In this document: positions 35,032 to 52,451 of the stretch, piece by piece
Layout of the letters: each line of letters begins with the position of its first letter
Numbering within the stretch: position 1 is the first letter of the stretch
Source of the DNA: Patescibacteria group bacterium
GTDB taxonomy: Bacteria > Patescibacteriota > Minisyncoccia > RBG-13-40-8-A
Direction of reading: 5' to 3'
DNA length: 64,000 nucleotides
Assembly (NCBI GenBank): GCA_018897295.1
Contig: JAHILA010000014.1
Location: forward strand, 3,390 to 67,389
Program-made: the position numbers and the translations under genes
Notes under the pieces: model-generated
Seen by the model: the letters and a program-made list of their open reading frames with translations, nothing else
Told to the model about the DNA's origin: nothing
Databases searched by the model: none

Positions 35032-35037
35032 ATAAAA

Positions 35038-35682
35038 ATGTCCAAAGAAACTCTTAATAAAATTTATCACTATCATCACACAGCCGAAAAACGAGAAGAT
35101 TTCGTTTCTTTTGGAATAATTAAAGGAAAGTTATTTTCCGAATGGATTGGTCGAGAGAAAAAGGTTTTGGATTTGGGTTGTAGAGATGGTGCTTTAACAA
35201 AATATTTTATTAAAGGAAACGAGGTTTTGGGCGTAGACGTGGATTGCGAAGCTTTAAAAAGATGCGAAGAGAAACTTAATATAAGAACAAAATGGCTTGA
35301 TTTAAATGATGATTGTGATTTATCCAAAGAGTTTGATGTTGTAGTGGCCAGTGAGATATTGGAGCATCTCTATTTTCCCGAAAAGGTTTTAGGAAGAATT
35401 AAAAACATTCTTAAAGAAGATGGATTATTTATTGGTTCGGTTCCCAATGCTTTTAGTTTGAAAAATCGTTTTAGGATTCTTTTTGGCAGGAAAAAAGGAA
35501 CACCATTAAACGATCCTGTACATATTAATCATTTTTCTTATAAAGAACTTAAACAAATTTTAAACAAAGAGTTTAAACAGGTTAGAATTTATCCCGTTAT
35601 TCAGAAAAAGTATAGTTGGCTGGCAAAAATTTTTCCATCGTTAATTTCTTATCAATTGATTTTTAAATGCAAAAATAAATGA
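35038..35682 (+). CDS. Class I SAM-dependent methyltransferase
   Basis: Motif I reads VLDLGCRDGALTKYF and a motif II/III pattern follows. Confidence 0.75.
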   Translation: MSKETLNKIYHYHHTAEKREDFVSFGIIKGKLFSEWIGREKKVLDLGCRDGALTKYFIKGNEVLGVDVDCEALKRCEEKLNIRTKWLDLNDDCDLSKEFDVVVASEILEHLYFPEKVLGRIKNILKEDGLFIGSVPNAFSLKNRFRILFGRKKGTPLNDPVHINHFSYKELKQILNKEFKQVRIYPVIQKKYSWLAKIFPSLISYQLIFKCKNK

Positions 35683-36803
35683 AGCTAATCTATTTAACAT
35701 CTAATCAATTTCCTTCACAAATGGCCAATAGTCAGCAGATTTTAAATACTTCAAGAGGGTTTTATAAGTTATTAAATAAAGATTTTTTGTTGATTATTGC
35801 TAATGCTTTTGAGTCGTTAAAAGGCGTTAATTATAAAGAAGTGGGCTTTAATAAAAAAGGACTGAGAACTTTTTATTATTTTTTTTGGACGTTTAAATTC
35901 TTTTTTAAAAATATTAACAAAAAAGATTATAATATTGTTTATTGTAGGGATTCAAACTTGCTTTTAATATTGAGCCTTTTGAAAAATCTTTTCCATTATA
36001 AAATAGCTTTAGAGTATCATAGATTTGAAAAGACATCAAAAGAAAAATTTATTATAAAACATGTTGATTATTTTATTGTTATTACGAATTATTTTAAGGA
36101 CTTGCTTATAAAAAAATTTAATGTTTCTAAGGATAAAATTATTGTTGTGCCCGATGCAGTTGATTTAAAGGCATTTGAGGCAATTGATATTTCTACACAA
36201 TCCATCCGCCACAAATTAAATTTACCCCTCGATAAAAATCTAATTGGTTTTATTGGCAGGTTTAAAACAAAAGGCCAGGAAAAAGGCATAAAAACAATGA
36301 TAGAATCGCTTCGATTTTTAGACGATTTAGACATAAGTATGTGTTTTGTTGGAGGAACAGAAGACGAAATAGAAGAATATAAAACAATGGCTGATAAATA
36401 TAATTTTGGACATAAGTGCATTTTTATAAAATATCAATTGACAGAAATGGTTCCGTTTTATGCGAAGGCTATGGATATTCTTACTATGCCATTTCCTTGG
36501 ATAGAGCATTATGCTTATTATATTTCACCAATGAAAATGTTTGAATATATGGCCGCCGGGAAACCAATTGTGGCTTCAGATTTACCGTCAATTAGAGAAA
36601 TTCTCAACAATAATAACGCAATCTTAATAGCGCCAAATAACCCCAAAATGCTGGCAGAGGGAATTAAAACCATTTTGAATGATTCATTTTTAGCAGAAAA
36701 GATTTTAAGCCGGGCGTCAGAGGATGTTAAAAAATACACATGGGATAAACGGGCCGAGAGAATAATAGATTTTTTAAAAAAAGATGAAAATATTATTAAT
36801 TAA
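35679..36803 (+). CDS. Glycosyltransferase (GT4-like, GT-B fold)
   Basis: A C-terminal FEYMAAGKPIVASDLPSIREIL motif is present. Confidence 0.65.
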   Translation: MKLIYLTSNQFPSQMANSQQILNTSRGFYKLLNKDFLLIIANAFESLKGVNYKEVGFNKKGLRTFYYFFWTFKFFFKNINKKDYNIVYCRDSNLLLILSLLKNLFHYKIALEYHRFEKTSKEKFIIKHVDYFIVITNYFKDLLIKKFNVSKDKIIVVPDAVDLKAFEAIDISTQSIRHKLNLPLDKNLIGFIGRFKTKGQEKGIKTMIESLRFLDDLDISMCFVGGTEDEIEEYKTMADKYNFGHKCIFIKYQLTEMVPFYAKAMDILTMPFPWIEHYAYYISPMKMFEYMAAGKPIVASDLPSIREILNNNNAILIAPNNPKMLAEGIKTILNDSFLAEKILSRASEDVKKYTWDKRAERIIDFLKKDENIIN

Positions 36804-38118
36804 ACCAAAATCATTTTTCAGCGCCAAGGGGGCTGGTCCACCGCTTAGTTTAATGTATATTGCTTCCTTCTTGAAACAAGGTGGCCATCAGGTGATTTTA
36901 AGGGATTTCATGGTCTTTAAGGGAGATATGAAAGAAGAATTAGAAAAATTAATAAAAGAAGAAAATATCAAAATAGCCGGTGTCACTTGTAATTCTCACG
37001 AGCGATTTGAATCTTTTGACGTTATTAAATTGCTTAAAAAAATTGATTCAAATATAATTACTATTTTAGGTGGACCCCATCCAACCATTTGTCCTCAGGA
37101 AACAATTAAAAATTTACCCGAATTGGATATTTTAGTTACAAATGATGGAGAGAATGCAATGAGAGTAATTATTGATTGTTTGAATAGCAAGAAAGATTTT
37201 GAAAATATTGGAGGCATCATTTATAGAACCAGACAAGGCGCGATTAAAGAAAATCACGTTGGTCGTATAGTAGTAAACCTGGACGAATATCCTTTTCCAG
37301 ATTTTAATTTAATCAATATGGATGATTATCAGCTTACGGTACCCATTAAAGGTAAACCTATGTCAGTACCGATAATTAGTAGCCGCGGATGTCCTTTTAA
37401 TTGCGGTTTTTGTGCTGCCAAAGAAACAAATTATGGTCGAATAAGATTTCGTTCTATTGACAATATAATTGAGGAATTAAAAATTTTATTGCCTAAGTTT
37501 CCCGGTTATCATATTTTCATTTATGATGATCATTTTTTAGTAAATAAAGATAGAATATTGGAGTTTTGTCAAAAAGTTAAAAAGGAAAATTTAAAATTTA
37601 AATGGGCCTGTTATGGCAGAGTTGATTCTATAGATGAAGAAATTGTTACAGCAATTAAAGAGGTTGGTTGTGTTATGATTTCTTTTGGTATTGAATCCGG
37701 CAGTAAAAAAATGTTGAAAAAAATGAATAAATTAATTTTACCCAATCAAATTATAAAGGCGGTTAAAATAGTTAAAAAACATGGTATTTCTGCTCGCGGT
37801 TCGTTTATTTTTAATTATCCAGACGAAAATATTTTTGACGTTATAAAAACTTTTTGGTTGATATTTAGATTAAAATTAACTCCTGAAGAATTTGCTATTG
37901 GGCCTTATACGGTATTATATCCAGGCACTCAATTATTTGCTGATTATAAAAATAAATGCTTGCCAGAAAATTTTAATTGGAATAAAAAATATGAAAATTT
38001 GCCTAATTATAAAGAAGTGCCGATTTATCAACCAATATTTTTTTCTTTACGGCTTTGGTTTATTCATTTTTTAAGGAAAATTCATAAAGCTTTTAATATT
38101 TTAAAATCTAAATTATGA
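36784..38118 (+). CDS. B12-binding-domain radical SAM enzyme
   Basis: It has a B12-binding N-domain and SSRGCPFNCGFCAA. Confidence 0.8.
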   Translation: MKILLIKPKSFFSAKGAGPPLSLMYIASFLKQGGHQVILRDFMVFKGDMKEELEKLIKEENIKIAGVTCNSHERFESFDVIKLLKKIDSNIITILGGPHPTICPQETIKNLPELDILVTNDGENAMRVIIDCLNSKKDFENIGGIIYRTRQGAIKENHVGRIVVNLDEYPFPDFNLINMDDYQLTVPIKGKPMSVPIISSRGCPFNCGFCAAKETNYGRIRFRSIDNIIEELKILLPKFPGYHIFIYDDHFLVNKDRILEFCQKVKKENLKFKWACYGRVDSIDEEIVTAIKEVGCVMISFGIESGSKKMLKKMNKLILPNQIIKAVKIVKKHGISARGSFIFNYPDENIFDVIKTFWLIFRLKLTPEEFAIGPYTVLYPGTQLFADYKNKCLPENFNWNKKYENLPNYKEVPIYQPIFFSLRLWFIHFLRKIHKAFNILKSKL

Positions 38119-39188
38119 CAGTTTGTTTTTTTGGCACATATGAACAAAGTTTTTCCCGAAACGCCGTTTTGATTAAGGGATTAAAAGAAAACGGAGTAGA
38201 GATTATTGAATGTTGTTCCAGATTTTTAGGCTGGAAGAAATTTCCTATTCTTGTTTTCAGGTTAATAAAAAAACATCGGCAAATTAAAGATAAATATGAT
38301 TGTATAGTAGTTGGCTTTCCAGGTCATTACATTATGTTTTTGGCAAAGATTTTAAGCAAAAAACCAGTTATTTTTGATGTTTTTGCTTCTAAATACATTA
38401 CTGAAATTGAAAGGAAAAAACTAGGTACAAATTCTTTAAAAGCCAAATTTTATTATTTTGCTGATTGGTTTTCCTGTAAATTAGCCGATAAGATTTTATT
38501 AGATACAGAAGAACATATTAAATATTTTGTTAAAACTTTTAAATTGCCAAGGAATAAATTCGAAAGAATTTTTGTTGGGACGATTGAGGATGTTTTTTGT
38601 CCTCGACCTCAAATTTATCATGAATGTTTTACGATTCTTTTTTATGCCAAGGTTACTCCAATGCATGGTTTCGAGCATATTATCAATGCGGCAAAAATTT
38701 TAGAAAAAGAAAAAGATATTTGTTTTGAAATAATCGGCAAAGGAAAACTATATGAAGATAAGATAAAAAATTTAGATAATTTAACCAATATTAAATTAAT
38801 TGATCAAATAGCCTATGAGGAATTGCCAAAACATATTCAAGAGGCCGATGTGTGTTTGGGAATTTTTGGTGGAACTCAAAAAGCGATGCTTGTTATTCCC
38901 AATAAAGTATATGAGTCAATGGCCATGGGGAAGCCATTTATTACGGGAGATTCTCGTGCCGTGCGCGAATTGTTGATAAATAAAGAGAGCGTTCTTTTTT
39001 GTAGAATGGCCGATTCGAATGATTTAGCCGACAAAATTATTGAATTAAAACACGAAGAGGCAATGAGAAAGAAAATTTCTTATGGCGCCAGAAAGGTTTT
39101 TGAAGAACGGGCAAGTTCTGTTGTTATTGGAAAACAATTAAAAGAGATTTTATTTTTAATGGTAGACAAAAATGAAAGAAAAAATTAA
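38115..39188 (+). CDS. Glycosyltransferase, GT-B fold (GT4/GT1-like)
   Basis: An E..MAMGKPFITGDSRAVRELL C-terminal motif is present and the N-terminal half has an acceptor-binding Rossmann fold. Confidence 0.6.
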   Translation: MTVCFFGTYEQSFSRNAVLIKGLKENGVEIIECCSRFLGWKKFPILVFRLIKKHRQIKDKYDCIVVGFPGHYIMFLAKILSKKPVIFDVFASKYITEIERKKLGTNSLKAKFYYFADWFSCKLADKILLDTEEHIKYFVKTFKLPRNKFERIFVGTIEDVFCPRPQIYHECFTILFYAKVTPMHGFEHIINAAKILEKEKDICFEIIGKGKLYEDKIKNLDNLTNIKLIDQIAYEELPKHIQEADVCLGIFGGTQKAMLVIPNKVYESMAMGKPFITGDSRAVRELLINKESVLFCRMADSNDLADKIIELKHEEAMRKKISYGARKVFEERASSVVIGKQLKEILFLMVDKNERKN

Positions 39189-39807
39189 AAAAATAATTCC
39201 TAATTTTTATACTAAGGCCAGGAAAACTTATTTTGGTAAAAACTCAAATTCTCTTAGAAGATTTTCTACTTATTGGTATTTGAAACTGAAATACAGTTTG
39301 TTTTCTATAGAAGAGAAAAATATTAAACTGCACCTGGGTTGCGGTCGTCAAAAAAAGGATGGATTTATAAATATTGATTACAATAAAACAAAGATAACCG
39401 ATTATGTATTAAATGTAATTAATTTGCCGTTCCCCCCTGGATCAATTGAGCGAATAGAATGTTATCACTTAATAGAACATTTTTCGATAAAAGAAATTCC
39501 TTATGTTTTTTCAAATTGGTATAAAATTTTAAAACCAGGGGGAGAGTTGGTTATGGAGTTTCCGGATTTTGATAAAAATATAGAAGCATATTTAAAAGAA
39601 GGGGACGAAAAAAGATTATTTAACATTTTTGGCGCCCAAAGATTTTTAGGCGATGTTCATCTTTGGGGCTGGAATTATGAACGTATAAAAACAGAATTAG
39701 AAAAGTACGGTTTTATAGGGATTAAACAAGAAGAACCTAGGGATTACCATATAAAAGAGGAAGATTGTATTAGGGTTGTGGCATGTAAAATAAAACAGAA
39801 AATATGA
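39172..39807 (+). CDS. Class I SAM-dependent methyltransferase (Methyltransf_11/23-like)
   Basis: LHLGCGRQKKDGFINID and ILKPGGELVMEFPD motifs are present. Confidence 0.7.
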   Translation: MKEKIKKIIPNFYTKARKTYFGKNSNSLRRFSTYWYLKLKYSLFSIEEKNIKLHLGCGRQKKDGFINIDYNKTKITDYVLNVINLPFPPGSIERIECYHLIEHFSIKEIPYVFSNWYKILKPGGELVMEFPDFDKNIEAYLKEGDEKRLFNIFGAQRFLGDVHLWGWNYERIKTELEKYGFIGIKQEEPRDYHIKEEDCIRVVACKIKQKI

Positions 39808-41285
39808 AAAAAACAATTTTACTTTTTATGCCTAATCCTTCTGAAGACAGGAAAAGAGAAACCCCGTTGAATCTAATAGCAATTTCTGTGTTTTTAGAAA
39901 AGGAGGGATATGATATTAAAATCTTTCATTCTTTTGATAAGAATCAGGCATTGATGTACGCAGACAAAGCGCTTTGTGTCGGCATAACAGCTATGACGGG
40001 TTATCAAATTTATGACGGATTACAATTCGCCAAATTGGTAAGAGAAAAAAATCCAAACGTGCCTATTGTTTGGGGAGGAATCCATCCTACAATTAAGCCC
40101 ATTCAAACGGTTGAACATCCATTGGTGGATATCGTGGTCAAGGGACAGGGAGAAGATACTTTTACTGAGCTTGTCCATAGATTAAACAACAATGAGAGTT
40201 ATGACGATATTCGAGGGATAACTTTTAAAAAAGACGGGAAAATAATCGATAATCCGACAAGGCCATTTAAAAGTATAAATGATTATCCTTTATTCCCATA
40301 CCATGTTTTGGGCGATAGTATTGAACAATATATTAGGAAAAATAATTATGCCAGCAGAAGTTTGGTTTATATCACCAGCTCGGGATGTGTTTTTAATTGT
40401 GCTTTTTGTTATTTGTCTAATCCTGCTTTTAGCAGGAAATGGGATGCTTATCCGGCCGAAAGAGTAGTTGACGAATTAGAGTATTTAGTTAAAACCTACA
40501 ATATTGATGGTGTAGAAATTAGAGATTCTAATTTTTTCGTAAATAAGCAGAGGGTTTTGGATATCTGTTCTGGATTATTGGAACGCAATATACATTTAAG
40601 CTTTTCTACGGTTAATGGCAGGGCAGACCAATTAGCCGGATATACTGATGATGAATGGAAGCTTTTGCGAAAGGCAGGAATCAGAGAACTTTTAATCGGT
40701 GCTGAATCAGGAGACAAAGAAACGCTAAATTTAATTAATAAGCAACTTTCAATAGACATGGCGATAGAATGCAATAGAAAAGCCCGAAAATATGATATTG
40801 ATATCCTAAATTCATTTATGACCAGTTTTCCCACAATACCACCAAAAAAAGAACTAAATAACACGTTTGAACTAATCTGTAGGATTTTTAAAGTCAATCC
40901 TCTTGCCAAAACTTTCTTATTTTTTTACACCCCCTATCCTGGCACTTCTTTGTATGAGTTAGCTCTTCAACAAGGATTTAAAGAACCAAAAAACCTGGAA
41001 GAATGGGGTGGGTTTGGACTAACTAGCGTAACCACTCCATGGACAAGCAAGTCTCACATTGGGAAAGTCCTATTATTAAAAGATTTATTTGTTTTAAAAA
41101 GGATTATTAGCGAAAACCATCTTAAACTTAAAAAAAGTTGGAAACATTTATTGTTAAAAAAAATGGGCATATACGCATTATTAAATTGGTGGATTGATTT
41201 AAGATTTAAATATAAATTTTATTTTTTTCCAATTGAGCGTATTTTATCTTTTTATCAAAACCGAAAGACACGAGAAGAGAAATAG
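39804..41285 (+). CDS. B12-binding-domain radical SAM enzyme
   Basis: It has a B12-binding N-domain and SSGCVFNCAFCYL. Confidence 0.8.
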   Translation: MKKTILLFMPNPSEDRKRETPLNLIAISVFLEKEGYDIKIFHSFDKNQALMYADKALCVGITAMTGYQIYDGLQFAKLVREKNPNVPIVWGGIHPTIKPIQTVEHPLVDIVVKGQGEDTFTELVHRLNNNESYDDIRGITFKKDGKIIDNPTRPFKSINDYPLFPYHVLGDSIEQYIRKNNYASRSLVYITSSGCVFNCAFCYLSNPAFSRKWDAYPAERVVDELEYLVKTYNIDGVEIRDSNFFVNKQRVLDICSGLLERNIHLSFSTVNGRADQLAGYTDDEWKLLRKAGIRELLIGAESGDKETLNLINKQLSIDMAIECNRKARKYDIDILNSFMTSFPTIPPKKELNNTFELICRIFKVNPLAKTFLFFYTPYPGTSLYELALQQGFKEPKNLEEWGGFGLTSVTTPWTSKSHIGKVLLLKDLFVLKRIISENHLKLKKSWKHLLLKKMGIYALLNWWIDLRFKYKFYFFPIERILSFYQNRKTREEK

Positions 41286-41321
41286 CATAATAAAGATTTT
41301 AAAATCAGGAATAAAATTATC

Positions 41322-41738
41322 GTGGCCATTGCATCAAATACGAAAAAGGATTATATTATAAATATAATGTACAAAAATATATTATTGACCATATTAGTAG
41401 CATTATTTACGATATTTAGTCAGACATTTTTAAAAAAAGGTCTTAAAATAATCGGCGAATTAAAAATAGCTGGTTTTCATGATTTGGGTGTAATTATTTT
41501 AAAATTAATTCAGAACAAGTTTATCATTATTGGTGTACTTATTGCGGCTGGCGGCGCTTTTTTATGGTTGATGGTTATTTCAAAAATGGATCTCACCACA
41601 GCTTTTCCTATAAGTGGAGCTATATTTTTTGTTTTGCTTTTTTTATTCTCCTGGATTTTTCTAGGAGAAACAATAACGGTTGTTAAAGTTTTGGGCGTTC
41701 TTTTAATACTTTCAGGTGCCTACATAATTTTTAAATAA
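41322..41738 (+). CDS. Small 4-TM DMT/SMR-like membrane protein (ArnE/ArnF-like). It may be a flippase subunit for polyprenyl-phosphate sugars.
   Basis: About 120-138 aa with four predicted TM helices and an EamA/SMR-like pattern. The true start may be an internal Met near 41367. Confidence 0.4.
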   Translation: MAIASNTKKDYIINIMYKNILLTILVALFTIFSQTFLKKGLKIIGELKIAGFHDLGVIILKLIQNKFIIIGVLIAAGGAFLWLMVISKMDLTTAFPISGAIFFVLLFLFSWIFLGETITVVKVLGVLLILSGAYIIFK

Positions 41739-42758
41739 ATGAATCCTCTTATTTCAATAATTATTTTGAATTATAACGGCATGCGTTTTTTAGCCACCTG
41801 CCTGAATTCTCTCAGGAAGCAGATTTATAAAAATTTTGAGATTATCCTGATAGACAATGGATCTACGGATGGATCTGTGGAATTTGTAAAAAGTAATTTC
41901 TCTGAAATAAAAATTATAAAAAATAAAGAAAACCCTGGCTTTGCAGAGGCAAATAATCAAGGGATTAAAGTATCCAAAGGAGAATTTATAGTGACGCTTA
42001 ATAATGATACAATGACAGATAAGAATTGGTTAGAGAATTTGGTCGAGGTGGCTCAAAAAGATAGAAAGATTGGTATGTGTGCTTCCAAAATACTGTTGAT
42101 GAGTGGCCAGAATGAGATTGATTCGGTGGGTGTGAATGTTTGCCTTGATGGGATGACGCGTCAAAGAGGCAGAGGTGAGATTGATAAGGGGCAATATGAT
42201 AGAATTGAAGAGGTGATGTTTCCGAGCGCCTGCGCCGCTTTATACAAACGGGAAATGATTGAAGAAATTGGTCTTTTTGATGAATTATTTTTTGCTTATT
42301 GTGAAGATTCTGATTTGGGTTTAAGGGGTAGGTTGGCGGGCTGGAAAGCGGTTCTATCGCCGAATGCAATTGTATACCACTATTATTCGGGCACCGCTGG
42401 CAAGTATTCGTCCTTTAAAGCCTACCTTGTTGAGAGGAATCATATTTGGCTAGTCGTGAAAAATTTTCCATTAGAACTTCTATTTCTTTTCCCGTTTTTT
42501 ACTTTGTTCAGATTTATTTTGCAATTTTATGCGGTTTTGGCCAAAAGGGGAGCATCGTTTCAATTTGTGAAACAGGGTTCAGTTTTCACTACCGTGGGAA
42601 CGATATTCAAGGCTTATTTTAACGCTTTTAAAAAATTACCGCTATTTATAAAGAAAAGGAGAATCATTCAAAGAAATAAAAAATTATCACGGTATGAATT
42701 TTATCCGCTTTTGCGCAAATATCGGCTAAGCTTTAAAGAATTAACTTTCAAAAAATAA
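41739..42758 (+). CDS. Glycosyltransferase family 2
   Basis: A SIIILNYNG...LIDNGSTDGS pattern and a DxD region are present. Confidence 0.8.
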   Translation: MNPLISIIILNYNGMRFLATCLNSLRKQIYKNFEIILIDNGSTDGSVEFVKSNFSEIKIIKNKENPGFAEANNQGIKVSKGEFIVTLNNDTMTDKNWLENLVEVAQKDRKIGMCASKILLMSGQNEIDSVGVNVCLDGMTRQRGRGEIDKGQYDRIEEVMFPSACAALYKREMIEEIGLFDELFFAYCEDSDLGLRGRLAGWKAVLSPNAIVYHYYSGTAGKYSSFKAYLVERNHIWLVVKNFPLELLFLFPFFTLFRFILQFYAVLAKRGASFQFVKQGSVFTTVGTIFKAYFNAFKKLPLFIKKRRIIQRNKKLSRYEFYPLLRKYRLSFKELTFKK

Positions 42759-42762
42759 AGAT

Positions 42763-43641
42763 ATGGTTTCTATTTTCGAAAAATTAAAACCAGATGTTAT
42801 TGTTTGCCCGTTTTGCAAAGAGTTGCTTATAAAGAAGGAAAAATTTTTATTCTGCTTAAAATGTAATAAAGAATATCCAATAATAAATAACGTTCCATAT
42901 TTTTTGATTGAATCCAACAAGTCAGAATATTCTTTGTCTAGTAGAAATTTTGAATTCCGAAGTCGTATTAGGAATTCGAGAATTTTTAAAATATTGAAAT
43001 ATATTTTTGGAGCTGATTTTGTACCCTATGATCCTTTGAAAAAATTTCATAGTATTTTTTTGGGCACAAAAGATGACAGATTTATTGTGCTGAATTTAGG
43101 ATCCGGCTCGAAAAATTACGGAAGGAGGGTTGTAAATCTTGACGTTGAGGCATTTCCTAATATTGATATTGTGGCAGATGGTTGTTGTCTTCCTTTTGCC
43201 GCTGATACCTTTGATGCGGTTATAGCCGAGGCAGTTATTGAGCATGTGAAGTATCCCGATAAATTTACCGCCGAAATTAAAAGGGTTTTGAAAAAAGGCG
43301 GGGCGATTTTTATTGTAGCGCCATTTGTTCATCCATTTCACAGTTACCCGAATGATTATCAAAGATATAGCATTGAAGGATTAAGAGTTCTTTTTGAAGA
43401 TTTTAAAGAGATAGAAAGCGGAGTTTATCGAGGTCCCAGCGTTGCATTTATTGGCATTTTCAGCGATTATCTTGCTGGAATATTTTCATTTTTGTGCCAT
43501 CCCATTCATCTTCTCATGAAGTCGATTTTTACTATTTTAATATTCCCAATAAAATTTTTAGACATCATTTTGGCTAAAGGCAAAAAAAGCTACATACTGG
43601 CGCACTCGGTATATTATATTGGAAAAAAGGTAAATGAATAA
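42763..43641 (+). CDS. Class I SAM-dependent methyltransferase with an N-terminal Trm112-like zinc ribbon
   Basis: It has CPFC...CLKC followed by VLNLGSGSKNYG and VLKKGGAIFIVAP. Confidence 0.65.
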   Translation: MVSIFEKLKPDVIVCPFCKELLIKKEKFLFCLKCNKEYPIINNVPYFLIESNKSEYSLSSRNFEFRSRIRNSRIFKILKYIFGADFVPYDPLKKFHSIFLGTKDDRFIVLNLGSGSKNYGRRVVNLDVEAFPNIDIVADGCCLPFAADTFDAVIAEAVIEHVKYPDKFTAEIKRVLKKGGAIFIVAPFVHPFHSYPNDYQRYSIEGLRVLFEDFKEIESGVYRGPSVAFIGIFSDYLAGIFSFLCHPIHLLMKSIFTILIFPIKFLDIILAKGKKSYILAHSVYYIGKKVNE

Positions 43642-43643
43642 CA

Positions 43644-45731
43644 ATGAAAATATTTAACTTATTGTTTGAATCTAGGATAAAACAAATAAATTCGCATCTC
43701 TTAGTTGATAAACCTTTATTTTTAATTAAGACAGCTTATCGCTATTTTTTAAAATTTGTTTTTAAGAAAGATTTACTCAGAGGGGCGGTTTTCGCATCTT
43801 CCTACCAATGCAATTTTCATTGTTCGCATTGTTACGCATTGAAATTCAGGAACGCCGGGATTAAAGAGCCGGAGTTTTATGAAAAAGCAGCAATAATCAA
43901 GGAATGTCTTAAGGCTGGCGTGATGGCATTTGATTTTGTGGGTGGAGAAATAGGAATAACGCCAGATTTTATAAATTTACTGAAAATTTGTAGGCCGAAG
44001 AGAACTTTTATTTCTTTGGCATCCAACGCCTTTGCCCTTACGAAAGAAAAAGTGAAGGATTTTAAAAAAGCCGGCGTTGATCAGATCAGTATATCAATAG
44101 ACGGCGGGACAGAACAAGAGCACGATGAATTCAGGAGACAGCCCGGATCGTTTAGAAAATGCTTCGAAGCTCTTGATATAATAAGAGAAGAAGGAATGAA
44201 CCCGGTTATTATTACTTGTGTTGCTCGGAGCGGTACAAGAAAAAAACCCTTTCGTGATTTAGTTGATTATGCCATTAAAACGCGAACGCAATTGATTTTT
44301 ACGCCTCTAATTCCATTTGGCGAGTTGGAAGGTAATTTAGACATTCTTTGTGACGAAGAAGATCTTGATTACATGAAAGAAATGCATAAAAAATACCCTT
44401 TTTTAACGAGAGATAACTATGAAAATATGGGAGAGATAGGTTGTCCGGGAGCTAAGCAGGTTATCTATGTATCTGAATATGGCGACGTGATGCCCTGTCC
44501 TTTCTTACATATCTCTTTTGGCAATATAATGACCGAATCCCTCGTTGATATTAGAGAACAAATGCTAAAGTTGCCGGAATTAAAACGATACAATCCTCGG
44601 TGTTTGGCCGGCGAGGAAACTTCATTTATTAAGAATCATTTGGCAAAACTTGCAAATATCGATAGTTATCCGATAACGGCAGAAAAAGTTTTTTCTGAAA
44701 ATAAGGATCTTTTTAGAGCCAAATCTTTTCATAAAAATATTGCAAAAATAGACCGTCCATGTCCTTTATGCGGTTCCTGGGAAAGAGAAGTAATTTCTAG
44801 TGGACGCGAACATGAATTTAAAGATACAACTCAAGACCTTTTTTTTGTAGTGAAATGTAAAAATTGCGATTTAGTCTATCTTAATCCAAGGCCAGATAAA
44901 AAAGAATTAGACATAATTTATCCAAAAAATTATTGTTGTCACAATGAACAGTATTCGGAAATAAATACAAAAAGAAATTTTTTAGTGCGCCTCAAGAATT
45001 ATTTAAATCATTGTCTGGGATTTCCGAGTAGAATCAGGCAAGTTTTAAAACTTATTCCGAAACAAAGTCAAATAAAAATTCTTGATGTTGGTTGCGGTAG
45101 CGGGGGAGCATTAGATGTTTTTAGGGAGAGTTGTCGGGGAGCACTAACGACCGGAATTGATTTCGATGAAAGGGCAATTAATATTACAGCGGCGAAGGGT
45201 CATTCTGTAATAAAGGCGAAAATTGAGGATGTCGAACTAGCGAAGGAAAATTTTGACATAATTTATTCAAGTAATGTCATTGAGCATGTTTCGGATCCCT
45301 TTCAAATGTTTCAAAAAGTAGCCTTTGCCCTCAAACCTTCAGGAATTTTTTTCTGCGAGACCCCGGACTTTGATTCCGTCGATTCCAAATTATTTGCCAA
45401 ATCTGGCCACTGGGGTGGATTCCATTTTCCGAGGCACTGGACTTTTTTTACGCCTAAGACTTTGGAAAAAATAGCGGATAAAGCCGGCTTGAAGTTGGAA
45501 AAAATTAAACATAGTCCGGTCCCAATTTTTTGGATATGGTCTATGCACTCGCTTTTATATCGGGGGCTGAATCGAAAAAAGCTTGCTGATAGACTATTCC
45601 CCCTAATAGAAAACAGGCAGAATTTTTTTATTTCTTTTTTGAATAAAATTATTTTCACGCTTATTGATATTATATTAGAAAAAACGGTTGGTCGAACAGG
45701 GGTAATGTGTGTTGTTTTTCGAAAAAAATAA
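43644..45731 (+). CDS. Fusion protein: radical SAM (CNFHCSHC) with a SPASM-like auxiliary cluster region, a zinc ribbon and a class I SAM methyltransferase
   Basis: An N-terminal CxxxCxxC is followed by a Cys-rich GCPGAK...PCPFLH segment. The C-terminal part has CPLCG...KCKNC and ILDVGCGSGGALDVF. Confidence 0.65.
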   Translation: MKIFNLLFESRIKQINSHLLVDKPLFLIKTAYRYFLKFVFKKDLLRGAVFASSYQCNFHCSHCYALKFRNAGIKEPEFYEKAAIIKECLKAGVMAFDFVGGEIGITPDFINLLKICRPKRTFISLASNAFALTKEKVKDFKKAGVDQISISIDGGTEQEHDEFRRQPGSFRKCFEALDIIREEGMNPVIITCVARSGTRKKPFRDLVDYAIKTRTQLIFTPLIPFGELEGNLDILCDEEDLDYMKEMHKKYPFLTRDNYENMGEIGCPGAKQVIYVSEYGDVMPCPFLHISFGNIMTESLVDIREQMLKLPELKRYNPRCLAGEETSFIKNHLAKLANIDSYPITAEKVFSENKDLFRAKSFHKNIAKIDRPCPLCGSWEREVISSGREHEFKDTTQDLFFVVKCKNCDLVYLNPRPDKKELDIIYPKNYCCHNEQYSEINTKRNFLVRLKNYLNHCLGFPSRIRQVLKLIPKQSQIKILDVGCGSGGALDVFRESCRGALTTGIDFDERAINITAAKGHSVIKAKIEDVELAKENFDIIYSSNVIEHVSDPFQMFQKVAFALKPSGIFFCETPDFDSVDSKLFAKSGHWGGFHFPRHWTFFTPKTLEKIADKAGLKLEKIKHSPVPIFWIWSMHSLLYRGLNRKKLADRLFPLIENRQNFFISFLNKIIFTLIDIILEKTVGRTGVMCVVFRKK

Positions 45732-46360
45732 TGCCTATCGATTATAAAAAAACTTCATCGCTTCTTTATCAAAGAGACCAATACCGAAAAGGTGGCATTG
45801 GTCGTTGGTATTGGGATTGGCGTGATAAAAAAATACTCGATTTTATTAAAAAAAAACATCAGGATATTTTGGATATCGGTTGCGGTGAAGGTATCACGCT
45901 TGAGAAATTAGTAAACAAATACAAAGATAAAAATATTTTAGGCGTTGATGTAATTGTTGAGAATGTTGATATCTGCAAAAAATACAACCTACCAGTCGTT
46001 CTGGGCGACGTTTATGGTTTAAAAATAAAAGAAGAATCGATTGACCTGTGTATCCTTTCAGAGGTGATTGAACATTTGGACAACGTAGGTTTGGCGCTCG
46101 AAAATATAAAGAGGATTTTGAGACCCGGCGGAGATTTAATCATCGTGTTTCCCAATGACACTTTTTTTAAAATAGCCAGAATACTTTTTTTAAAATTCAA
46201 AGAAGCATTTGCCGATTACGGCCATATTAATCATTTTTCGCCATGGAGTATCGAAAAGATTTTGAGTAGGGCGGGTTTCGAGATTATCAAAATCAAAAAT
46301 ACTCCGTTTGGGTTTTGGATTTTAAGTTTGCATTGCTTAGTCTTAGCGAGGAAAAAATGA
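45731..46360 (+). CDS. Class I SAM-dependent methyltransferase
   Basis: An ILDIGCGEGITLEKL motif is present. Start is probably the ATG overlapping the upstream stop (TAATG); the track ORF begins at 45707. Confidence 0.7.
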   Translation: MPIDYKKTSSLLYQRDQYRKGGIGRWYWDWRDKKILDFIKKKHQDILDIGCGEGITLEKLVNKYKDKNILGVDVIVENVDICKKYNLPVVLGDVYGLKIKEESIDLCILSEVIEHLDNVGLALENIKRILRPGGDLIIVFPNDTFFKIARILFLKFKEAFADYGHINHFSPWSIEKILSRAGFEIIKIKNTPFGFWILSLHCLVLARKK

Positions 46361-47736
46361 AAAAAGTTTTATTTATAAGGGCGATAGATCCCATAAGCGA
46401 AGTGGAAACGAGGTATCCGGGTTTAGGATTGGCTTATTTGGCAAGTGCTTTGCGTTCTCATTTTGGAGACGATTATTTTGATTTTCGGATAATAGAGAAT
46501 GGAAATGAGTCTGAAGTAAAAAGACAGATTTCTCAATTTGAGCCGAATATCGTGGGCATAAGTTCGGTTACGCAAAATTTTAATCTGGCAAAAGAATACG
46601 CGGTTTTCGCGCATAATAGAAATATCCCAGTTATAATGGGCGGGATTCATATTTCAATGTTGCCGCAGTCCTTGCCCAACGAAGCGGTTTTGGGCTGTAT
46701 TGGGGAAGGAGAACGGACGATCGTTGATCTTTTTTGTCTGTTCGAAAAAGCGGGCGAGTTTTCCAAAAAAGAATTAAAAAAAATAAAAGGAATCGTGTAT
46801 CGCGATGATGGCGGGCGACTGGTCGTGAATGAACCAGCGCCACTTATAAGTAATTTAGACGAGATAAAGATGTCGGCGCGCGATTTGCTTGAGATAAAAA
46901 AACATTCTTACATTTTTTCTTCGCGAGGATGTCCGTATAGATGCACTTTTTGCGCGTCATCTCGATTTTGGAATAAGGTTCGGTTGTTTTCGGCAGAATA
47001 TGTGGTTGAGGAAATTAAAGAGCTTTATGAACGATACGGCGTTAGGATGATTAGTTTTTTTGACGACCTTTTTATTATTAGTCCGCAGCGGTTGGAAGAA
47101 ATTGTCGTTTTGTTGGAGAAAGAGGGGTTGTTGGGGAAAATAAAATTTACCGGTTCGTGTCGGGCTAATCTGGTTAATAAAGGAGTAGCTAAAATCCTAA
47201 ATAAATTAGGTGTTGTCTCGGTCGGTCTTGGTTTGGAGTCGGGCAACGAGAGGGTGTTGCGTTATTTGAAAGGAGAGACTGCCTCGGTCGAATTCAATAA
47301 AAATGCCGTGGCTATACTAAAAAAATACGGGATTACGGTTAATGCTTCTTTTGTTATTGGTTCGCCCGATGAAACTGAAGAAGAAATGATGGAAACTTAT
47401 CGTTTTATAAAAAATAATCCTTTGGATTTGGTTGATGTTTATGTTTTGACACCACTGCCCGGTACGCCGATCTGGGAATATGCTAAAACCAGAAATTTGG
47501 TTTCGGATGATATGGATTGGTCGAAGTTTAACGTCAATTTTGAAGTCGGCCATAAAGAAGCGATTATTCTTTCAGAATTATATAATGCTGATCAGCTTTA
47601 CCGGATTTATAAAAGATTCAGGCGATTGCGTTTGTATTTAAATGCAAAAAACATTTGGCACAGTCCGTTTTTAATGGATTTACCTAAATATGTAATAAAG
47701 AAAGTTTTTGAGCGGCTAAAATCATTTTTAGGATAG
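46357..47736 (+). CDS. B12-binding-domain radical SAM enzyme
   Basis: It has a B12-binding N-domain and SSRGCPYRCTFCAS. Start is set at MKKVLFI (46357) overlapping the upstream stop; the track start 46315 is an upstream extension. Confidence 0.8.
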   Translation: MKKVLFIRAIDPISEVETRYPGLGLAYLASALRSHFGDDYFDFRIIENGNESEVKRQISQFEPNIVGISSVTQNFNLAKEYAVFAHNRNIPVIMGGIHISMLPQSLPNEAVLGCIGEGERTIVDLFCLFEKAGEFSKKELKKIKGIVYRDDGGRLVVNEPAPLISNLDEIKMSARDLLEIKKHSYIFSSRGCPYRCTFCASSRFWNKVRLFSAEYVVEEIKELYERYGVRMISFFDDLFIISPQRLEEIVVLLEKEGLLGKIKFTGSCRANLVNKGVAKILNKLGVVSVGLGLESGNERVLRYLKGETASVEFNKNAVAILKKYGITVNASFVIGSPDETEEEMMETYRFIKNNPLDLVDVYVLTPLPGTPIWEYAKTRNLVSDDMDWSKFNVNFEVGHKEAIILSELYNADQLYRIYKRFRRLRLYLNAKNIWHSPFLMDLPKYVIKKVFERLKSFLG

Positions 47737-47745
47737 TTTATCCAA

Positions 47746-49116
47746 TTAGATTTTTGTTAGGATTTTCAGCCCTCGTAGATTGTATAATAAATCCTTCAAA
47801 GATTTTATTGAACTTATCCTCTTCCAGATGTATTTCGGTCTGAAATAAAATGATCTATAAGCAGTTTTTAGATAGCGACGAAGCTTGTTAATTGAAACAT
47901 CGGATAAGCTGATAAGTGGTTTTGCGCTTAGAGCATAAAAACTTTTTGACCAATCGTTATTAATCTTTCTTGATTGTTTTGCTATTTCATAAAGTTCTGT
48001 TCCGGGGTAGGCGGTAGCAATAGCAAACTGGACATAGTCTAAATTTAATTCTTTACTAAATTTAATGGTTCGTTTAATTTCCTCCTCGCTTTCGGTGGGT
48101 ATGCCGAGTATAAAGTATCCCAACATTTGAATATTAACCCCTTTTGTTATTTCGACAGTATTTTTTATTTGTTCAATAGTAGTGCCTTTTTTTAGAAAAT
48201 TTAGGACTCTCTGGCTTCCAGATTCAATACCATAAGCAATTAAATAGCAGCCGGCTTTTTTCATTATTTTGAGTAGTTCTTTGTCGACTAAATTAACTCG
48301 GGTTTCGCACTTCCATTGAATTTTTATTTTATTCTCAATGAGTAGTTGGCAGATTTTTAATACTCGCTTCCTGTCTAAGGTAAATGTGTCGTCGTAAAAT
48401 TGGAGTTCTTTAATGCCATATTTATTTTTAAGTAATTCTATTTCCGAAATAATATTTTCTGGACTTCGGGGTCTAAATTTGGTACCAGTAATTGGCTTAG
48501 AGCAGTAAATGCAATGGTGAGGACATCCTCGACTAGTAAAAATAGTGGTGGCTGGTTTTTTAAGACTATTTAAATATTTAGAATATCTTTTTATGTTTAA
48601 TAATTCTCGGGCCGGGAAGGGTAATTCGTCTAAGTTTTCAATAAAATCAGCGTCAGGGGTATTGATAATTTGTTTATTTCTTCGGAAGGTTAACCCAGGC
48701 AGATTCTCGGGATTTTGTTTTTTTAAGATATATTCAACCAGTTTTGGAAATCTTATTTCTCCCTCTCCTCGAAAAACATAATCAATGCTTTCGGTTTTTT
48801 CTAGCACTTCATTTGGTTTAAGAGTGGCATGGGCTCCGCCTAAAATAATAATTTTTTCAGGGAATTTTTTTTTAATTATTTCTGCCAGGTAAAGAGCTTT
48901 TTTTATATTTGGCGTCACAGCAGTTAAGCCAATAATAGAAGCATTTTCTTTTTTTATAAATTTTAATAGTTTTTCTTCTGAAAATTTTTCTAACAAATAA
49001 TCAAGAATAATAACTCGATAATTTAATTTTTGGAGGGTAGCTGCCAAATAAGCCAGTCCCAGCGGTGGACAGACAAGAGACTTTTTACCTGGCGGATTAA
49101 TGAGAAGAATAGTCAT
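47746..49116 (-). CDS. B12-binding-domain radical SAM enzyme
   Basis: It has TSRGCPHHCIYCSK. It converges on the 46357 gene with only a 9-nt gap. Confidence 0.8.
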   Translation of the reverse strand: MTILLINPPGKKSLVCPPLGLAYLAATLQKLNYRVIILDYLLEKFSEEKLLKFIKKENASIIGLTAVTPNIKKALYLAEIIKKKFPEKIIILGGAHATLKPNEVLEKTESIDYVFRGEGEIRFPKLVEYILKKQNPENLPGLTFRRNKQIINTPDADFIENLDELPFPARELLNIKRYSKYLNSLKKPATTIFTSRGCPHHCIYCSKPITGTKFRPRSPENIISEIELLKNKYGIKELQFYDDTFTLDRKRVLKICQLLIENKIKIQWKCETRVNLVDKELLKIMKKAGCYLIAYGIESGSQRVLNFLKKGTTIEQIKNTVEITKGVNIQMLGYFILGIPTESEEEIKRTIKFSKELNLDYVQFAIATAYPGTELYEIAKQSRKINNDWSKSFYALSAKPLISLSDVSINKLRRYLKTAYRSFYFRPKYIWKRISSIKSLKDLLYNLRGLKILTKI

Positions 49117-50219: not shown

Positions 50220-51659
50220 ATGCAAACAATTAAAGAAAATAGATATTTTTTAATTATACTTCTTGGGTTAACTTTGCTAAGTGCCTTGCTTTGGAGTTGG
50301 GGTGATTTTGGTATTCAGCATAAATTGTTTGCCGACGGAACATATACAGATGATGGGGCTCTTTATGACAAGATTGGCAGAAATATAATTGAGAAAGGAA
50401 TATTTAGTGACGATGGTTCTACGAGGGAAAGTTTGATAGAGCCATTATATCCATTAATTATTGCCGGAGTCTATAAATTAGTAGGACCAAACCAGGATGC
50501 ATTAAGAATTTTAAATTTAATAGTTTTCTGTATTTCGATAATTTTGTTTTATTTTCTTGTCCGTTCTTTGTTTAGACATGAAAAAATTGCTAAAACCTCG
50601 GCAATTATTTTTGCTTTTTGTTATCCTTTGGCAAATGAAGTAGGGCAGATACATCGTGAAGTAATTTTTATTTTTCTAACTTTGCTTTTAGCGTTATTTA
50701 TTTATAAAAGTCAAGAAACTGGTAAAAAAAAATGGTTTTTTGGTTCTGGTATTATATTAGGCCTTGCAATTTTGCTTAACGGTGTTGCCCAATTATTACC
50801 ACTATTCATCTTGACCTGGTTTTTTTGTTTCTATAGAAAGCAGTTTAAAACATTGTTTTTTTGGAAGCGGGTTATTCTATTTATTTTAGGACTGTTAATT
50901 GTGGTTAGCCCTTGGATAATGCGGGATTTATTTAAGAAAGGGAAACTTGAATTTGTGTCGCCAAAAGGAGGTTTGATTTTTTCTCGGCGTGTCGAAATAA
51001 TGAATGGTATTAAAAATGATTTTTGGTCCCATTTGGTTGGCCAGACAGTAGGATACTATTTTGTTCAGAAATTTGATCCAGATGTTGATATTAAAAAATT
51101 GTGGAAACATCCTTTAACTATTGATTTGGCAGAAAAAATCGAAAATTCTAAAAAGGAATACGGAGATGTTGAAATCCAACTAATAAAGAATGGTCTAAAA
51201 GAAATTATTAGTAACCCTGTAATGTTGGTTGCCGCTTCATTATTAGATTTTATAAGATTAAATAGCCCTCTTTTACCGGCAAAGAATTTTTCTGTTAGAG
51301 AAGCATCTACTTTATTCGTTCAATATCGTTGGAATCACGTGCCAAATTATATTAAAACCTCATTTCTTATATTTGTTCGTTTAGTTTGGTTATTGTTTTT
51401 TGCTTTGGTTGTTTATGGTATCGTGAAATCTAAAAACAAATTGTCCGTTTTAGCTCCTATTTTATTGTTAATAATTTATTTTAATTTATTTTATAGCTTG
51501 ATTCATGGCATCCCGCGTTATGCCTATCCCATTTATCCTTTTTATATTATGTTTTTTGTGGTGGGGATTTTTGCTTTTTATTCAAAGTTTTTTCGCCGTG
51601 ATAGTCATCATACTAGTCAAGCCGAACTTAGCCAAGAGATGACTCAGGGGTCGAAATAG
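50220..51659 (+). CDS. GT-C fold glycosyltransferase, GT39/GT83-like (PMT / ArnT family)
   Basis: 479 aa and polytopic. The N-terminal region with a DDG/DE loop motif resembles PMT/ArnT. It is transcribed divergently from the GT2 gene. Confidence 0.55.
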   Translation: MQTIKENRYFLIILLGLTLLSALLWSWGDFGIQHKLFADGTYTDDGALYDKIGRNIIEKGIFSDDGSTRESLIEPLYPLIIAGVYKLVGPNQDALRILNLIVFCISIILFYFLVRSLFRHEKIAKTSAIIFAFCYPLANEVGQIHREVIFIFLTLLLALFIYKSQETGKKKWFFGSGIILGLAILLNGVAQLLPLFILTWFFCFYRKQFKTLFFWKRVILFILGLLIVVSPWIMRDLFKKGKLEFVSPKGGLIFSRRVEIMNGIKNDFWSHLVGQTVGYYFVQKFDPDVDIKKLWKHPLTIDLAEKIENSKKEYGDVEIQLIKNGLKEIISNPVMLVAASLLDFIRLNSPLLPAKNFSVREASTLFVQYRWNHVPNYIKTSFLIFVRLVWLLFFALVVYGIVKSKNKLSVLAPILLLIIYFNLFYSLIHGIPRYAYPIYPFYIMFFVVGIFAFYSKFFRRDSHHTSQAELSQEMTQGSK

Positions 51660-52451
51660 CCAACAGAATAGATAAGAAAGAATAAAATTCGTTTTATCAT
51701 TTTTACACTTAAAAACATAATTCAGTGTTTTTAGAAATATTTTCGGATTAGGGTCGAATTCAATCTTTTGTGTTTTGAAACCAGCTTTTTCCAGAAGTTG
51801 ATTTATTGTTTTGGGAGTAAAATGATAAAGATGGCGAGGGCAGTCAAGACCAAACCATTTATTTTTAAATATTTTTGCCGACAAACTGCGGAAATTTGGA
51901 CCGTAAATAATTATTTCTCCATTTGGCTTTAGAAGGTTTTTTAATTGTTGCAGAGTTGTAAGGGGATTATTGAGATGTTCCAAGCTATTATTCAGGTTTA
52001 TAATATCAAAATAATTAAATTTATAATTTGCGTCTTTAAGTTCTCCGCAAAAAATATTTAGTCCTTTCTCTATAGACTGTTTACAAGCATATTCATTTAT
52101 ATCCAAGCCATATAGTGCCCAATTGGGGTGGCTTTTTTTAATTTCTGATAATTGATTTCCGCTCCCGCAGCCAAAATCTAAAAAATGTAATCTACTTTGG
52201 TCTTCTTTATGGTTTACTCCTTTCTTATGTGAAGATGTGTTTATTTTTTTGGACTGATACGTTTTATAATCAGGAGGATAATATTTTTTTAATCCCTCGA
52301 GGGTGGGCTGGGGATTTAAATAGACCAGACCACAATTAAGGCATTTAACAATATTAAACTTAGTATCGTCTACCTTATGAAGCAGATCTTTGCCGGCAAA
52401 CAATTGTTTCGTTTCATCTTTATTACAAATAATGCATTTGATTTGATTCAT
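51582..52451 (-). CDS. Class I SAM-dependent methyltransferase with an N-terminal zinc ribbon
   Basis: It has CIICN...CLNCGLVYLNPQP followed by FLDFGCGSGNQL. Confidence 0.7.
   Translation of the reverse strand: MNQIKCIICNKDETKQLFAGKDLLHKVDDTKFNIVKCLNCGLVYLNPQPTLEGLKKYYPPDYKTYQSKKINTSSHKKGVNHKEDQSRLHFLDFGCGSGNQLSEIKKSHPNWALYGLDINEYACKQSIEKGLNIFCGELKDANYKFNYFDIINLNNSLEHLNNPLTTLQQLKNLLKPNGEIIIYGPNFRSLSAKIFKNKWFGLDCPRHLYHFTPKTINQLLEKAGFKTQKIEFDPNPKIFLKTLNYVFKCKNDKTNFILSYLFCWLFRPLSHLLAKFGLTSMMTITAKKL

Follow-up and report, generated by a model that had tools for sequence, protein, structure and literature searches.

What reaction would bring a radical SAM (rSAM) enzyme and a conventional methyltransferase (MTase) together in one polypeptide, and on which substrate would the two act? 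The question is raised by a single gene within a 64,000-nucleotide stretch of contig JAHILA010000014.1 (hereafter the window). An initial annotation described it as a fusion of an rSAM enzyme carrying a Cys-rich, SPASM-like extension with a zinc ribbon and a class I MTase, and suggested two successive modifications of one substrate. The composition of the polypeptide was borne out by the motifs located in it, C56-N-F-H-C60-S-H-C63, C373-P-L-C376-G, K-C405-K-N-C408 and D481-V-G-C-G-S-G-G, and by Pfam matches far above chance to Radical_SAM (residues 54-209, E=7e-19), SPASM (267-307, E=1.7e-5; a score of 25.4 bits where the cutoff is 21.5, with only profile positions 1-46 of 67 aligned) and Methyltransf_23 (467-619, E=1.8e-23). 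The gene begins 3 nt past the stop codon of an upstream MTase gene, and its 3' end overlaps a downstream MTase ORF by 25 nt. Its layout, with AF2 structure predictions made on the two halves separately, is as follows.

43644..45731, + strand: the fusion gene, with an ATG start, 695 aa plus stop.
43644..43778, + strand: N-terminal helical segment, basic and aromatic (aa 1-45; AF2 helices 17-22 and 24-40).
43779..44375, + strand: radical SAM core (aa ~46-244), with C56/C60/C63, GGE (100-102), N128, S151/D153 and H160-D161-x-x-R164.
44376..44693, + strand: predicted twitch (half-SPASM) auxiliary-cluster domain (aa ~245-350), with C267-X12-G280-X4-C285 and C320.
44694..44741, + strand: variable interdomain linker (aa ~351-366), the cut point of the natural split version.
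44742..44885, + strand: four-Cys zinc ribbon (aa ~367-414), with C373, C376, C405 and C408.
44886..45518, + strand: class I SAM methyltransferase core (aa ~415-625), with D481-x-G-C-G-x-G, D506, E547-H548 and W590-G-G-x-H594-x-P-R-H598.
45519..45731, + strand: C-terminal hydrophobic/aromatic helical lid (aa ~626-682) and final beta-strand, from the AF2 secondary structure.

The N-terminal segment of about 45 residues gave no Pfam match; it is conserved among standalone as well as viral relatives of the rSAM half, and the alignment to the viral homologue includes it. Hydropathy analysis placed a hydrophobic segment at residues 660-679, within the C-terminal lid, which is only suggestive of membrane anchoring.

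The N-terminal half shows the features of the PF04055 superfamily, namely a CX3CX2C cluster motif, a GGE SAM-binding motif and a partial (beta/alpha)6 barrel, and C56, C60 and C63 are invariant across 122 relatives. A full SPASM domain has a seven-Cys motif, CX9-15GX4C-gap-CX2CX5CX3C-gap-C, and binds two auxiliary clusters, whereas the twitch domain is a truncated SPASM that retains the first half of the motif on a beta-hairpin and has one auxiliary cluster site (PMC6231123). In the fusion, the CX12GX4C motif (C267...G280...C285) aligns with the twitch hairpin of SkfB, with AF2 strands at 273-276 and 281-283 followed by helices; beyond it there is C320, and the CX2CX5CX3C block of SPASM is missing. 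Exactly three auxiliary cysteines, C267, C285 and C320, are universal among the 122 relatives. Since only these three are universal and the CX2CX5CX3C block is missing, the extension is predicted to be a twitch domain with no more than one auxiliary Fe-S cluster, bound through three cysteines. The SPASM-like label is thereby narrowed to this half-domain, and with only three conserved cysteines the extension is not Cys-rich. C173 is an unlikely fourth ligand, being kept in only 18% of the relatives.

Among the closest known systems are the twitch-domain rSAM enzymes SkfB, MoaA and BtrN (PDB 6efn, 1tv7 and 4m7s), which share with the fusion the CX3CX2C cluster, the GGE motif, the partial TIM barrel, and a C-terminal beta-hairpin with flanking cysteines (CX12GX4C) followed by a later Cys at a single auxiliary site; MoaA likewise conserves only three auxiliary cysteines. 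BlsE, the rSAM enzyme acting on cytosylglucuronic acid in the blasticidin S pathway (PDB 7vob), is 19% identical to the fusion. It differs in its C-terminal cysteines (CxCxxC, as against C...C...C in the fusion), has no MTase domain and belongs to a nucleoside-antibiotic pathway, not to polysaccharide synthesis. No match was found in the fusion to the B12-binding domain PF02310 of class B cobalamin-dependent rSAM methylases. The named NCBIfam equivalogs (AhbD, NirJ, TIGR04053, GeoRSP, MoaA, PqqE and viperin) were rejected, all scoring far under their cutoffs; the best, AhbD, reached 91.9 bits where 500 are required.

The C-terminal half has the hallmarks of a class I MTase, with motif I (D/E)xGxGxG, an acidic residue after beta2 and a Rossmann-like fold. 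The four zinc-ribbon cysteines C373, C376, C405 and C408 are invariant in A1 and 95-97% conserved in 61 relatives, and they align with the CxxC...CxxC of a PF08484-containing phage homologue, a TcaB9-type C-MTase. The homology of this half to TcaB9-type NDP-hexose C-methyltransferases (PF08421/PF13489/PF08484; PDB 3ndi) spans the zinc ribbon and the Rossmann core, in an alignment of 249 residues at about 18-25% identity, and the four-Cys zinc-binding module before the MTase core is common to both. However, neither PF08484 (Methyltransf_14) nor PF08421 matched the fusion at E<=1, the hhalign alignment ends near residue 622, and about 60 residues of hydrophobic/aromatic helices stand in place of the PF08484 domain. 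Since that domain, which defines TcaB9-type enzymes, is missing, O- or N-methylation by the fusion would be as compatible as C-methylation.

The gene lies in a glycan cluster of about 38 kb, as part of a conserved five-gene cassette of GT2, MTase, fusion, MTase and B12-rSAM. Besides the fusion, the cluster holds five MTase genes and six B12-rSAM genes; a standalone paralogue of the fusion's MTase half lies within it. The cassette partners and the paralogue are:

41739..42758, + strand: GT2 glycosyltransferase, 339 aa, 46-48% identical to the GT2 adjoining the fusion in other genomes.
42763..43641, + strand: protein with a CxxC...CxxC N-terminus and Methyltransf_11, 292 aa, 30-32% identical to the gene directly upstream of the fusion elsewhere.
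45707..46360, + strand: class I methyltransferase, 217 aa, 45-46% identical across loci.
46315..47736, + strand: B12-binding radical SAM enzyme, 473 aa, 51-53% identical across loci.
51582..52451, - strand: standalone paralogue of the zinc-ribbon MTase half (outside the cassette), 289 aa, 30% identical over its whole length.

No nucleotidyltransferase gene for sugar activation and no 4,6-dehydratase gene was found in the window, so the link to NDP-sugars is drawn from relatives at only 27-32% identity. As further sugar context, locus L055 encodes a CMP-sugar-type cytidylyltransferase, a GT2 and an amidotransferase; standalone rSAM relatives adjoin NDP-sugar epimerase/dehydratase, GtrA and GT2 genes; and the genes at phage loci include those for a nucleotidyltransferase, 4,6-dehydratase-type SDRs, DegT, NeuB and a ThDP enzyme. 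All the longer contexts are glycan clusters or nucleotide-sugar loci.

The initial annotation had proposed a search for the same fusion in other genomes, and this recovered at least 17 distinct full-length homologues from different samples and phyla, at 40-57% identity and with the alignment continuous through the linker, confirming that the fusion is real and conserved. An exhaustive search extended the relatives to about 1,100 at E<1e-30. The relatives include more divergent fusions in the same order (P0028, P0029, P0035, P0039, P0042, P0043, P0046, P0048 and P0096), fusions in the reversed order, MTase before rSAM (P0030 and P0044), and fusions of the rSAM domain to other MTase subtypes (P0045, P0072 and P0132) or to a DegT sugar aminotransferase (P0148). 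In one lineage the protein is encoded by two genes (L052/L053) that overlap by 4 nt, with the break falling precisely in the linker; their products share 53% and 49% identity with the corresponding halves. Of 33 viral loci, at least 15 have rSAM and MTase genes side by side on one strand; the evidence for viruses comes from IMG/VR contigs, and two of these contigs were checked for viral hallmark genes. Among 50,697 deposited phage genomes there was no homologue of the viral rSAM protein, and the fusion itself gave one weak match only. Taken together, these comparisons show that the rSAM and MTase modules are recurrently linked, fused in either order, split and overlapping, or adjacent. The family ranges over Ratteibacteria, Syntrophales-type MAGs, the source MAG, labelled Patescibacteria, and uncultivated phages. 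Our literature searches turned up no description of this fusion or pairing, and no characterised member.

We lean, with moderate confidence, towards a bifunctional enzyme in which the rSAM and MTase halves are coupled in tailoring a sugar of a surface-polysaccharide pathway. The rSAM half would use a 5'-deoxyadenosyl radical to take a hydrogen from a sugar, either nucleotide-activated or linked to polyprenyl phosphate at the membrane. The conversion of that sugar would be either an oxidation that yields a keto sugar or a dehydration/elimination like those of BlsE, DesII or BtrN, and the auxiliary cluster with its three Cys ligands would accept electrons, anchor the substrate or do both. Next, the MTase half would methylate this same sugar, the likeliest site being the carbon beside the new carbonyl, as in TcaB9, with O or N as the alternatives, and the GT2 of the cassette would place the product into the glycan. 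The surface-glycan sugar, as a class of substrate, is the main addition to the earlier suggestion of two steps on one substrate. Of the chemistries that the initial annotation put forward, epimerisation or dehydrogenation ahead of O/N-methylation is possible, and the variant in which the rSAM generates the methyl acceptor gains some weight from the homology of the MTase half to NDP-sugar C-methyltransferases; the specific order of keto-sugar formation followed by C-methylation is, taken by itself, doubtful.

The DegT fusion and the PF08484-type partner point to a sugar substrate. In the desosamine and butirosin pathways (DesI/DesII/DesV/DesVI and BtrN/BtrS), one deoxy or amino sugar is worked on jointly by an rSAM sugar lyase or dehydrogenase, aminotransferases of the DegT family and a class I MTase, and these three kinds of enzyme occur together, or as fusions, in P0148, L054 and L088. 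A more specific proposal, which we regard as speculative and rather improbable, is that the pair of three-Cys twitch rSAM and zinc-ribbon MTase provides anaerobes and their phages with a hitherto unrecognised way of making methylated or branched sugars in two steps, without cobalamin. With the substrate held on the open iron of the cluster, radical chemistry would place a carbonyl or enol where NAD-dependent 4,6-dehydratases cannot reach, and a TcaB9-like C-methylation would follow. With the nucleotide-binding PF08484 replaced by what would be a membrane-facing helical lid, the substrate of such a route may be a polyprenyl-phosphate-linked sugar.

The strongest competitor, although still unlikely, is that the halves are independent activities, fused only for co-expression or co-localisation and acting on different sugars or on different positions of one polysaccharide. 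The numerous MTase and B12-rSAM genes of the cluster suggest that its tailoring enzymes are modular, the MTase half has a standalone paralogue in the same cluster, and it is widespread elsewhere as a standalone protein without any rSAM nearby. Furthermore, MTase motif I is degenerate in the P0019 lineage, which implies that methyl transfer is not obligatory for rSAM function. Repeated joining, in both domain orders, with several MTase subtypes, as an overlapping split pair and as adjacent phage pairs, is nevertheless hard to explain by co-expression, and this comparative evidence supports action on one substrate.

Coupled action on a sugar is also to be weighed against action on a lipid (a polyprenyl carrier, a fatty acyl chain or another membrane lipid), with the rSAM half attacking an unactivated lipid carbon and the MTase methylating the lipid. 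This is distinctly unlikely, as the longer contexts all concern glycans or nucleotide sugars, the similarity of the fusion to Tes/GDGT-MAS is weaker than that to SkfB, MoaA and BlsE, and the DegT fusion and PF08484-type partner suggest sugars. Less probable still is a SkfB/SuiB-like maturase of RiPPs or proteins with an attached peptide methyltransferase. The top-scoring fold neighbours of the rSAM half, SkfB, SuiB and ChlB, are indeed peptide-modifying enzymes and count against a sugar substrate; within the SPASM/twitch group, function is poorly predicted by sequence or fold similarity (PMC6231123). However, the tightly packed operon showed nothing like a gene for a precursor peptide, the N-terminal segment of about 45 residues, without a Pfam match, is too short for an RRE, the NCBIfam scores fall far under their cutoffs, and all contexts examined involve glycans or sugar nucleotides; the maturase reading was rejected on the missing RRE and these contexts. 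An assembly or frameshift artefact joining two genes, which the initial annotation had itself raised against the fusion, is practically excluded, because despite the two-gene version in one lineage the conserved architecture recurs in at least 17 independent full-length sequences and in the divergent fusions.

Sequential action of the two halves on one sugar, if it occurs, would make this family a new step in the anaerobic tailoring of surface glycans, and a sugar-acting three-Cys twitch enzyme would join a subfamily whose function cannot be predicted from sequence. The repeated pattern of fusion, splitting and adjacency lends itself to experiment, since the substrate is marked by the MTase partner. 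The locus also brings to attention glycan clusters unusually dense in radical SAM enzymes; here, seven rSAM domains occur in about 30 kb.

The fusion ORF (43644..45731, + strand) opens with an ATG and encodes 695 aa. It starts 3 nt after the upstream stop codon and is overlapped for 25 nt by the downstream ORF, so the gene belongs to a tightly packed operon. The motifs named in the initial annotation, CNFHCSHC (C56/C60/C63), CPLCG (C373/C376), KCKNC (C405/C408) and DVGCGSGG (from D481), were all located, and the Pfam annotation it called for matched radical SAM (rSAM), partial SPASM and methyltransferase (MTase) profiles.

Pfam matches in the fusion protein
aa 54-209: Radical_SAM (E=7e-19)
aa 267-307: SPASM, partial (25.4 bits, cutoff 21.5; profile positions 1-46 of 67 only)
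aa 467-619: Methyltransf_23 (E=1.8e-23)

NCBIfam matches (AhbD, NirJ, TIGR04053, GeoRSP, MoaA and other SPASM/twitch enzymes) were all sub-threshold, with a top score of 92 bits (cutoff 500), leaving no named NCBIfam family that covers the fusion. Public annotation is generic, the identical protein at NCBI being labelled only 'methyltransferase domain-containing protein [Patescibacteria group bacterium]'.

Comparison figures for the rSAM half were 21.3 for SkfB, 19.8 for viperin, 19.7 for SuiB, 19.5 for ChlB, 19.2 for BlsE, 18.9 for anSME, 18.4 for MoaA and 13.0 for BtrN. SPASM domains carry a seven-Cys motif (CX9-15GX4C-gap-CX2CX5CX3C-gap-C) and bind two clusters, and the twitch domain is a truncated SPASM binding one (PMC6231123). 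In the fusion, C267-X12-G280-X4-C285 aligns to the SkfB twitch hairpin and is followed by one further Cys (C320); the CX2CX5CX3C block is absent from the fusion family. Six Cys and no others, C56/C60/C63 and C267/C285/C320, are universal among the 122 relatives compared (24-100% identity). C173 is invariant in the fusion clade, but just 18% of the wider family has it. Three universal C-terminal Cys without the CX2CX5CX3C block indicate a twitch domain in which these Cys are the predicted ligands; the extension first described as SPASM-like is thus of the twitch type, but is not a full seven-Cys SPASM. The sequence implies that the fourth ligand of the predicted auxiliary cluster is either missing, which leaves an iron site open, or not a Cys, as in MoaA, which likewise has three Cys ligands.

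In the MTase half, the four ribbon Cys (C373, C376, C405 and C408) are 95-100% conserved. A phage homologue bearing PF08484, the C-terminal domain of the TcaB9-type NDP-sugar C-methyltransferases, aligns to this half over the zinc ribbon and the Rossmann core (hhalign probability 98.7%, E=2.6e-16). The alignment ends at about aa 622, and the C-terminal ~70 residues form W/F-rich helices with one hydrophobic segment (660-679), then a terminal beta-strand. The alignment and the different C-terminus together indicate that this half is related by descent and architecture to TcaB9-type enzymes but is not a member of that group, membership being defined by PF08484. A standalone paralogue in the same gene cluster (51582..52451, - strand, 30% identity) has both the ribbon and the C-terminal helices. 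Standalone relatives with 31-41% identity are widespread (Melainabacteria, Acidobacteriota, Chitinophagales, filamentous cyanobacteria), and no rSAM partner was found near them. The Melainabacteria/Obscuribacterales loci L011-L018 hold two paralogous standalone zinc-ribbon MTases, 37-41% identical to the C half, ~2-3 kb apart on opposite strands, with no rSAM relative within 8 kb.

The two modules have been joined repeatedly. Reversed-order fusions, MTase→rSAM, occur (P0030, P0044), and the rSAM module is also fused to other MTase subtypes (P0045, P0072, P0132). In a natural split (L052/L053), a 340-aa rSAM protein, 53% identical to aa 19-350, stops exactly at the linker, and its gene overlaps by 4 nt that of a 292-aa MTase, 49% identical to aa 366-695. 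On its 3-kb contig the L052 pair (497-2941) is closely followed by a NinG-like gene, so this split version too may be carried by a phage. Of 33 IMG/VR viral loci, at least 15 have adjacent rSAM and MTase genes on the same strand, overlapping by 4 nt in L088, and in L055 (8001-12233) the reversed fusion P0030 (706 aa) adjoins a same-order fusion of 695 aa. Next after the two L055 fusions come a standalone rSAM and three MTases, of which one has DUF268; before them stand a GT2, a CTP_transf_3 cytidylyltransferase, a further rSAM and an Asn-synthase-like amidotransferase. Such recurrence in different orders, split or adjacent, is Rosetta-stone evidence for a shared pathway step. To that extent the proposal of two successive modifications on one substrate is supported, but linkage alone does not prove sequential action on one atom. 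That the halves are independent activities, fused for co-localisation only, is in our estimate unlikely.

Gene contexts point to sugars. The fusion gene sits in a cluster spanning ~19.8-57.4 kb of the window, and five genes are conserved around it in other genomes.

Glycan cluster and conserved cassette (minus-strand coordinates marked (-) in the MTase and B12-rSAM rows; identities across loci)
Many GT4 and GT2 glycosyltransferases
Wzx flippase; Bac_transf priming transferase
Wzy_C/TPR protein; PMT_2 GT-C enzyme
Small EamA-like membrane protein
Six class I MTase domains: 35038, 39172, 42763, fusion, 45707, 51582 (-)
Six B12-binding rSAM genes: 29937, 33607, 36784, 39804, 46315, 47746 (-)
Cassette GT2: 46-48%
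Cassette Methyltransf_11 with CxxC...CxxC N-terminus: 30-32%
Cassette fusion: 53-55%
Cassette ~210-aa MTase: 45-46%
Cassette B12-rSAM: 51-53%

With the fusion, seven rSAM domains fall within ~20 kb (29937-49116). This density of rSAM and MTase genes suggests that the polysaccharide is heavily methylated on C and O. ORFs of 1213, 332, 430, 600 and 353 aa (14750-18391, 22034-24368, 59011-61898) had no Pfam match; the longest comes shortly before a beta-helix protein and the cluster start.

Among relatives, standalone rSAM genes adjoin NDP-sugar epimerase/dehydratase, GtrA and GT2 genes, and P0148 (761 aa; L054:7014-9299) fuses the rSAM-twitch module to a DegT/DnrJ/EryC1 sugar aminotransferase. 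Beyond this fusion, L054 has two rSAM/SPASM, two B12-rSAM and one DegT gene. On two IMG/VR contigs of uncultivated phages (L088:1576-11161, L066:764-13514) the rSAM/zinc-ribbon-MTase pair lies within nucleotide-sugar gene sets (nucleotidyltransferase, GDP-mannose-4,6-dehydratase-type SDRs, DegT, NeuB, ThDP enzyme, PF08484 C-methyltransferase). As for viral genes, L088 has a gene for a major head protein ~2 kb ahead of the start of this set, and L066 encodes a UvsX-like recombinase; none of 50,697 deposited phage genomes yielded a homologue of this viral rSAM. Divergent fusions are likewise located in MTase- and GT-rich loci.

BlsE, which acts on cytosylglucuronic acid, is the closest solved sugar-acting relative of the rSAM half, and its authors proposed a 3-Cys second cluster in contact with substrate (PMC3715490). 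Domains, ligand conservation, folds, repeated linkage and sugar settings are shown by the data; by our reading, the rSAM half would take hydrogen from a sugar carbon and convert the sugar by oxidation, dehydration/elimination or decarboxylation, with the three-Cys auxiliary cluster accepting an electron, binding substrate, or both; the MTase half would next methylate the same sugar. TcaB9-type C-methyltransferases require a neighbouring carbonyl. Given the lineage of the MTase half, this need makes generation of the methyl acceptor by the rSAM half, a suggestion of the initial annotation, the most attractive specific model, albeit a doubtful one; O- or N-methylation is fully compatible. No nucleotide-sugar activation or dehydratase genes occur in the window, so the fusion may act on a common NDP-sugar synthesised by genes elsewhere or on a sugar linked to polyprenyl phosphate. 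The lipid-linked option would be reasonable, since hydrophobic helices replace PF08484 and a GT2, a small 4-TM protein and a GT-C enzyme are present. The EamA/TMEM234-like 4-TM gene is directly upstream of the cassette GT2 (41322-42758) and the PMT_2 gene close by (50220-51659); the three resemble a polyprenyl-phosphate-sugar synthase/flippase/transferase set of the Arn/Gtr type.

Modification of a lipid would fit the likeness to Tes/GDGT-MAS, the hydrophobic C-terminal helices, an LPG_synthase_TM neighbour and the desaturase-MTase fusion P0147; we consider it improbable beside the sugar contexts. In P0147 (687 aa) a membrane fatty-acid desaturase domain (PF00487) is joined to a zinc-ribbon MTase homologue (35% identity over aa 359-694), which hints that the subfamily may be able to act at the membrane. 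A role as RiPP maturase is very improbable, with no RRE, precursor gene or fitting context; the N-terminal ~45 residues, short basic/aromatic helices kept even in viral homologues, are too short for an RRE.

The fusion is real, and an artefact is practically negligible as an explanation: the search for the same architecture elsewhere, among 5.8 billion clustered proteins, recovered this protein in identical form and ~18 others of full length (658-717 aa, 40-57% identity) from independent samples, one a Ca. Ratteibacteria MAG. Seventeen align end to end through the linker (mean column identity 62%), which at ~aa 351-366 is the sole poorly conserved stretch. Of 185,579 species-representative genomes, only 4 have the complete fusion: Ca. 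Ratteibacteria, a Syntrophaceae MAG, a Syntrophobacterales MAG and one unclassified MAG. The main clade is thus rare and seems restricted to uncultivated lineages represented by MAGs alone. Exhaustive HMM searching of 1.84 billion representatives gave 1,114 proteins at E<1e-30, including divergent same-order fusions with 25-32% identity (P0028, P0029, P0035, P0039, P0042, P0043, P0046, P0048, P0096).

The literature searched contained no characterised member and no account of the fusion or pairing. Desosamine and butirosin biosynthesis set precedents for rSAM, DegT and MTase enzymes working together on deoxy sugars; as both domains also come from well-known superfamilies, the fusion is not a new category. 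It offers a clean, conserved and tractable lead to putative radical chemistry on surface glycans of uncultivated (here MAG-only) bacteria and phages. The main clade's most divergent member, P0019 (L003:6221-8197 / L010; 40% identity), has a degenerate motif I, IIGWGVEQ in place of LDVGCGSG; its MTase half may be inactive, in which case rSAM function would be able to persist without methyl transfer.
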